Shown in pieces: positions 33,963 to 34,215 of a DNA stretch of 64,000 nucleotides. The stretch lies in NCBI GenBank assembly GCA_951406725.2, contig OX597840.1, positions 39,370,001-39,434,000 of the forward strand. Direction: 5' to 3'. The stretch is from Octopus vulgaris. Its lineage: Eukaryota. Each line of letters starts with the position of its first letter. The stretch's first letter is position 1. The notes below the pieces were generated by a model. That model did no database searches and had not been told where the DNA came from. It saw nothing but the letters and a program-made list of their open reading frames with translations. The position numbers were made by a program, and so were the translations under genes.

Positions 33963-34215
33963 TGTTGTGTCTGGGGAGAGTTATTTTATGTTTGTGCCTT
34001 ATTATGTAACACACTCACAGCTAAAAATTCCACTTAATTCTTTTTATTTTATTATCCTAGGAAAATGAAACTAAGAATTAAGTGGAAATTTTACCAGTGA
34101 GTGTGTTACATTATAAGGCATAAAAAGAAAACGACTCTCCCCAGACACAACAGAATATGCTTCAACACACGAACTCATATAAAGAATCTTGCAAACCAAA
34201 TCCAAAAACGAAATA
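33963..34215. mobile_element. Fold-back copy of family 7 unit (arms about 33963-34058 / 34059-34152, apex CCTAGG)
   Basis: TGTTGTGTCTGGGGAGAG...CCACTTAATTCTT versus AAGAATTAAGTGG...CTCTCCCCAGACACAACA; the right arm continues to the family 3' end seen at 47455. Confidence 0.85.

Follow-up and report, generated by a model that had tools for sequence, protein, structure and literature searches.

The fold-back described here, in a window of 64,000 nucleotides of Octopus vulgaris DNA, is probably a head-to-head insertion of the pLTR of a Penelope-like element (PLE), made by priming of reverse transcription from two nicks, with the two cDNAs joined at a TA that lies mostly by chance on the cut of a predicted hammerhead ribozyme. 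An earlier note on this DNA had read the same hairpin as the trace of an RNA template that began at the ribozyme cleavage point. A single hairpin by itself proves nothing, and most of the evidence below comes from the relatives of the window copy elsewhere in the genome.

The hairpin and the element that it belongs to

The fold-back that had been reported at 33963..34152 is real: positions 33958-34157 pair with themselves at 84% identity (self-BLAST), and the DNA fold of the hairpin (-69 kcal/mol, z = -16.9, equalled by none of 200 shuffles) is far beyond chance. Its right arm runs on unpaired, as a tail, to 34214, beyond the end coordinate given in the earlier note (Table 1). Family positions are numbered from the predicted hammerhead cut, +1 being the T of TAGG (34058; 10648 on the minus strand) and -1 the preceding base. 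As the earlier note had claimed, the symmetry axis lies at the predicted cut: the TA at 34058-34059 is common to both arms and corresponds to +1 and +2 of the cut predicted from 10646-10682 (minus strand), and the hairpin copy contains no sequence from upstream of that cut. The only perfect run over the axis is TCCT/AGGA at 34058/34059 (4 bp). The CCTAGG micro-palindrome, which had been named as a competing explanation of the inversion point, is present at this apex but is not a feature of the family, in which the majority sequence is TTTAGG. The CC at the apex is supplied by the inverted arm, and only TA is therefore microhomology.

Table 1. Features of the element family in the window, in positions of the whole stretch.
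Feature	Position	Strand	Remarks
Inverted tail-less arm of the PLE pLTR	33958..34059	-	Family +1 to about +100
Forward arm	34058..34214	+	Family +1..+157; takes in the tail at its 3' end (about 34158-34214) and the beginning of the PLE reading frame
Apex CCT/AGG	34056..34061		With 2-nt TA microhomology
Candidate left copy of a decayed 11-bp target-site duplication	33950..33960	+	9/11 match; low-complexity flank; tentative, by eye
Candidate right copy of the same duplication	34214..34224	+	Tentative, by eye
Predicted U3-A8 minimal type-I hammerhead	10646..10682	-	Cut between 10649 and 10648
Second family copy	10548..10690	-	About -42..+101; tail-less; adjoins a (TA)n tract; whole ribozyme retained
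Third, more diverged family copy	47258..47451	+	About -42..+157; reads through the cut

The window hairpin is atypical among inverted copies in the divergence of its arms: they disagree at 14 of 98 sites, where the mean is 6.9%, and have only one variant in common. Its target-site duplication (TSD) is doubtful, and an automatic scan for TSDs at the hairpin did not recover the pair seen by eye (33950..33960 / 34214..34224). These three properties of the window copy count against the reading that we prefer. The family ATG at +74 reads ACG in the forward arm. An assembly artefact is an unlikely source of the hairpin, given arms this different and the 60 of 91 family copies that are built alike. 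Among the contigs listed from public sequencing runs none spanned the apex, which speaks neither for nor against the junction. Of the two other larger copies in the window, the one at 10548..10690 contains the whole ribozyme, so its template was uncut. A short diverged fragment of the family (about +65..+100) at 28141-28198 (minus strand) adjoins a (TA)n tract. Microsatellites dominate the repeat listing of the whole window, and long trinucleotide-type tracts, some of them oppositely oriented, lie at 6000-8800 and 30600-31600.

In the genome (2.8 Gb in 227 contigs, microsatellite-rich) there are 1,799 perfect matches to a 38-mer taken from the right arm. By its sequence the repeat is the pLTR of a PLE, of the Neptune type as judged from the linker motif alone; we identify it so because long copies carry the linker, a GIY-YIG domain and RT motifs, and because the repeat both fronts and follows the reading frame. 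In one such copy (L191), a Pfam GIY-YIG domain lies upstream of the repeat (E = 8e-5, above the cut-off) and is preceded by RT motifs, giving the RT and C-terminal GIY-YIG in one reading frame that define EN+ PLEs; the RT motifs were seen by eye, Pfam RVT_1 reaching only E = 0.05 on a frameshifted piece. This locus also bears an inverted, tail-carrying arm. The C-x4-C-x2-C linker before the nuclease in the translations of L191 and L199 fits the CX2-5CxxC of the Neptune/Nematis clade. The repeat stands behind the frame in L191 and L199 and in front of it in L220/L231, where the frame begins at the ATG at +74, so that it forms the partial tandem expected of a pLTR, one that takes in the beginning of the reading frame. 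The 3' repeat of L231 was not found inside the stretch retrieved around that locus. We rejected a 48-nt intron after an ATG at +8, since only a minority of copies carry that ATG, and the one at +74 is in frame, can serve without splicing and matches the start of a sister family.

The L220/L231 locus (G000:C5 near 7.21 Mb) is a long copy, now decayed, that extends from the pLTR into the frame, and an Asn-rich stretch upstream of its RT motifs recalls the N-rich inserts of rotifer Penelopes (PMC3846280). The 3' region of the element upstream of the pLTR (about -450..-70; L054, L112, L161-L190) contains (CA)n/(TACA)n-like repeats, and many copies of the family sit in (TA)n tracts; the element may seed or spread microsatellites in this genome. 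The sister PLE, found at L196:8380-8712 (plus strand) and L191:2300-3434 (minus strand), is younger and has 2,001 exact tail matches. Its N-terminus is homologous, and its hammerhead core has C3-G8 at the homologous place but a C at position 9.

The U3-A8 hammerhead of the earlier note is sound as a predicted motif, lying as it does in a PLE pLTR and having a C3-G8 version at the homologous place in the sister family. It has the hammerhead core (C3-G8 or U3-A8, G5, A6, A9, G12-A13-A14, helices I and II and an NUH triplet), with a 3-bp helix I, an unpaired G before a 5-bp helix II, and AAUU as helix III. The predicted helices I and II form the minimum-energy fold (-7.3 kcal/mol), with a z of only -1.1. 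No hammerhead appeared among 150 listed of the 309 Rfam matches in the window, these being matches of microRNA models and of a single snoRNA model to (TA)n/(CA)n tracts. The motif resembles the minimal hammerheads of metazoan PLEs, in the U3-A8 variant of Schistosoma Cercyon, in its U3-A8 covariation, its unpaired base before helix II, a palindromic 15.2-16.2, its short helix I and motifs lying near each other on opposite strands; it differs from them in having a helix I of only 3 bp, a helix II of 5 bp and a UUU cleavage triplet (PMC4209133). A type-III hammerhead cutting at -44, with a small AGTC/GACT hairpin as helix I, was rejected on inspection, having no NUH triplet.

Formation of the inverted units

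To describe the build of the family we used a sample picked by the 3' end only, namely 93 of the first 100 listed of the 1,799 matches to the 38-mer (7 were left out), from which two copies at L081 were dropped to leave 91. At L081 (G000:C1 near 113.75 Mb), two tail-only pieces separated by 1.6 kb both follow the same 138-nt stretch foreign to the family, and were probably carried by another repeat. Among the matches listed, 60 of the 91 copies (62 with a looser parser) have an inverted arm abutting the 5' end, and so show the inverted 5'-truncated arm and the one-arm tail of EN+ PLEs. The outer ends of the inverted arms fall at +92..+107 in 55 of these 60 listed copies, and the forward arm ends at about +157; outer ends are thus fixed near +100 and +157, while inner ends are variable. 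TSDs of 8 nt or more, with 12 nt the commonest length, surround 53 of the 62 inverted units among the matches listed, against 8% in shuffled pairs; for non-inverted copies the figure is 7 of 29 listed, against 12% in the control. A TSD around the entire unit, another mark of EN+ PLEs, is therefore present in the family, even if it is in doubt at the window hairpin. Non-majority alleles common to both arms of a unit occur at 0.0135 per site, compared with 0.0037 in permuted pairs (3.7 times; reached by 0 of 2000 permutations). By this comparison an inverted unit goes back to a single insertion, templated probably by one RNA or one source locus. The junctions between arms show short overlaps or short insertions, and in four loci (L089, L113, L153 and L120) there are short templated tandem inserts from the 5' side of the ribozyme that resemble repeated template switching.

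PLE copies with an inverted 5' arm and a tail have been published (PMC8557442, PMC3846280). For an anole PLE it has been demonstrated in vitro that both nicks serve as primers, that reverse transcription starts at two internal sites and that both strands are extended, with uncleaved RNA as the main substrate (PMC11167929). The difference between +100 and +157 in our family is the PLE 'tail', which matches those two internal start sites. From the observed anatomy, TSDs, shared alleles and distribution of ends, we infer nicking, priming, a common template, run-off and joining, as follows. A staggered double nick would be made about 12 bp apart at an AT-rich target, and the 3' ends of both nicked strands would prime reverse transcription at the two internal start sites of the element, with the same RNA, or the same source locus, serving as template for both arms. 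The cDNAs would run off at the 5' end of the transcript (-44) or stall earlier, and their ends would be joined by microhomology; at the window hairpin, both would have stopped near +1 and been joined via the 2-nt TA.

An alternative, raised in the earlier note as a cDNA end that snapped back, is that one cDNA folded at a small palindrome and copied itself, which would make the ribozyme incidental; self-priming has been proposed for inverted PLE junctions (PMC3846280). Junctions that are symmetric to within 10 nt are enriched 1.8-fold (20 of 60 among the matches listed, against 11.1 expected, P = 0.001), and several lie on local palindromes. This enrichment is not explained by independent ends alone and counts against the reading that we prefer. 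However, the asymmetry exceeds 10 nt in 40 of the 60 listed junctions, and overall the inner ends show no correlation (rho 0.11, p 0.39). Pure snap-back moreover gives no cause for the fixed outer end near +100 or for the 12-bp TSDs, and the TA at the window apex offers only 2 nt. We thus consider self-priming very improbable as the origin of the window hairpin, and keep to priming from two nicks.

Genomic 5' ends relative to the predicted cut

The strongest claim in the earlier note was that hammerhead cleavage defines the 5' end of the element, and it is refuted by the distribution of ends, despite the window hairpin and a second locus (L237) that start at the cut on both arms. Among the matches listed, the 91 copies provide 151 inner arm ends, of which 91 lie upstream of the cut, 30 at -46..-42 and just 2 at -2..+3, and the whole ribozyme is retained at 62 of the 151. 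Genome-wide patterns for ends at single positions gave 413 matches at -44, 10 at +1, 10 at -8 and 24 at +9, with 0 in each reversed control, instead of the pile-up at TAGG that had been sought. The +1 pattern is handicapped because the partner arms are T-rich (46% T), but once anchor match rates and the composition of the flanks are corrected for by hand, -44 is still about 11 times as frequent as +1. Raw counts are slightly inflated by L259/L260 and L022/L023, each pair having the same insertion and flanks; these are probably segmental duplications. Both other larger copies in the window carry the uncut motif as well, and we give the idea that cleavage sets the 5' end almost no credence.

The pile-up at -44 is sharp and falls on a C/A step upstream of the hammerhead (e.g. 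L131-L160, L191:6960). Judging by the pattern of ends, -44 is likely the transcript start, and for Penelope an internal promoter with a fixed start site has been described (PMC2377424). If cDNAs started at +100 or +157 within the 5' pLTR and ran off at -44, the dominance of short copies would be accounted for. As the inner ends peak at -44, upstream of an intact hammerhead, the usual template would be uncleaved RNA, with hammerhead-cut RNA as the possible source of no more than about 1 arm in 200. A G precedes 57 of 100 ends at -44 (among the matches listed, hand count), but we rejected a cap-derived G at -45 as evidence of a capped start, since it is mostly TTGA microhomology of the partner arm.

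Nor does a fold-back apex at the cut stand out, as had been supposed: exact symmetric TA apexes occur genome-wide at one locus at the cut (L237), against two at the control TA at +15 and none at that at +35. The window hairpin is too diverged to match this pattern, so that two +1/+1 apexes are known, where about one is expected by chance (a rough hand estimate that takes ~1% of arms to end at +1 and the inverted units to number roughly 6,000). An apex placed as in the window hairpin is within the range that the junctions of the family yield, and its match to the cut is likely mostly coincidence.

There is, nevertheless, a roughly 2-fold excess of ends exactly at +1, which amounts to about 0.5% of arms. 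An unbiased pattern covering -3..+1 has 61 matches, which by hand count end 21 times at +1, 6 times at -1, 12 times at -2 and 22 times at or beyond -3; the share at +1 compares with about 19% expected (P = 0.004) and exceeds those at -1 and -2 (P = 0.007). A control of the same design at +35, in the same AAATTT/TA context, gave 7 of 63 (Fisher p = 0.002; 0.004 minus one duplicate row, and 0.02 also minus four rows with TAG microhomology). Among 100 listed of 126 rows, which come largely from the same loci, 17 (16 distinct) end at +1, against 7, 7, 5 and 11 at +3, +2, -1 and -2, so that +1 takes 16 of the 46 among -2..+3 (P = 0.011). A simulation of uniform ends with microhomology does not raise +1.

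This excess, over both the neighbouring positions and the control, counts against a join that met the cut by chance. It favours a rival in which the element and the route of insertion are the same but the window copy came from hammerhead-cut RNA, both cDNAs having run off the cut end before they were joined at TA; the two +1/+1 apexes fit this as well. Against it, positions -23..-19 also vary about 2-fold among themselves through microhomology (8.4-17.7 per expected unit; hand count, all 92 rows), and +9 is nearly as frequent as +1 after correction (hand calculation). The partner arm passes through the cut in 7 of 10 loci that end at +1, and about one +1/+1 apex would be expected by chance. 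Minimal hammerheads cut poorly in vitro (PMC4209133), and in the anole PLE no RNA reads were reported to end at the cut (PMC11167929).

The sister family gives arguments for either side. Its outer ends lie at +127 and +190, and among the matches listed its ends cluster at about -104..-94 and +71..+84. In favour of the cut-RNA rival, 38 of 100 listed rows (of 138 in a 12-nt window) end at -2..+1, an excess with P between 0.004 and 0.07 when 17 rows of one microhomology hot spot are left out. With those rows included, however, P is 0.10-0.47, and an unbiased sample of 100 copies, the first listed of the 2,001 matches, taken from 370-nt stretches in which long arms are clipped, has only 2 of 135 ends at -3..+3, with no peak, and 83 of 135 upstream of -40. 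Taken together, we regard an origin of the window copy from cut RNA as unlikely. The wider proposition, that about 0.5-1% of cDNAs ran off RNA cut by the U3-A8 minimal hammerhead and that both did so at the window hairpin, appears from the sequences to be possible, if doubtful. Of the earlier claim that the hairpin is a genomic record of cleavage in vivo, what is left is the residual excess at +1, which could be a faint record but is close to the spread that microhomology produces at other positions. The reading that we prefer is still a join of two cDNAs primed from the two nicks, at a TA that probably lies on the cut mostly by chance.

Comparison with known elements and significance

The element, its ribozyme variant and its inverted build are all of kinds already known. 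L1 twin priming likewise involves an inverted cDNA primed by the second strand of the target, a single TSD around the unit and a join by microhomology. The inverted and forward parts of L1 cover different stretches of the RNA, whereas both arms cover the same stretch here. R2 has an HDV-like ribozyme near its 5' end, and the cut makes the end of the RNA. Non-LTR retrozymes are likewise retroelements with a self-cleaving ribozyme near the 5' end, whose cut yields a monomer (bioRxiv 10.64898/2026.07.22.740005). Most copies of our family, by contrast, retain sequence upstream of the cut. The piling of genomic 5' ends at the cut that would mark an R2-like element or a retrozyme is not seen (2/151 ends among the matches listed; 2/135 among those listed for the sister family), and no tandem retrozyme arrays were seen among the loci retrieved.

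A close parallel is PAc (Poseidon of Anolis), which shares the two fixed 3' ends just inside the frame, the AT-rich targets and genomic copies made mostly from uncleaved RNA (PMC11167929). Our hammerhead lies wholly upstream of the ATG at +74, whereas the frame of PAc starts inside its helix II, and a sharp 5' end at -44 with a weak excess at the cut is not described for PAc in the available text (PMC11167929). The tail is about 57 nt here, against the 30-40 usual for EN+ Neptune-type PLEs in the text available (PMC8557442, PMC3846280), and the TSD is about 12 bp, against 8-10 in Adineta Penelopes (PMC3846280). Our search of open-access papers, in their main text, turned up no mapping of PLE genomic 5' ends relative to the hammerhead cut. 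Cutting by PLE hammerheads in vivo and the origin of PLE inverted repeats are described as open questions (PMC8557442, PMC11167929).

The family offers thousands of junctions with which both hammerhead cleavage in PLEs and the origin of their inverted repeats can be tested. The fixed ends at +100 and +157, the 12-bp TSD and the shared alleles support formation of the inverted unit in one event with two primers. By the map of ends, the 5' end of the element does not lie at the ribozyme cut, and genomic copies alone give a sharp candidate transcript start at -44. If the excess at +1 holds in a full map, cleavage in vivo would be measurable from genomes. Rare run-off at +1, if true, would be genomic evidence, readable from assemblies alone, of an animal PLE minimal hammerhead cleaving in the germ line, beside the dominant end at -44.
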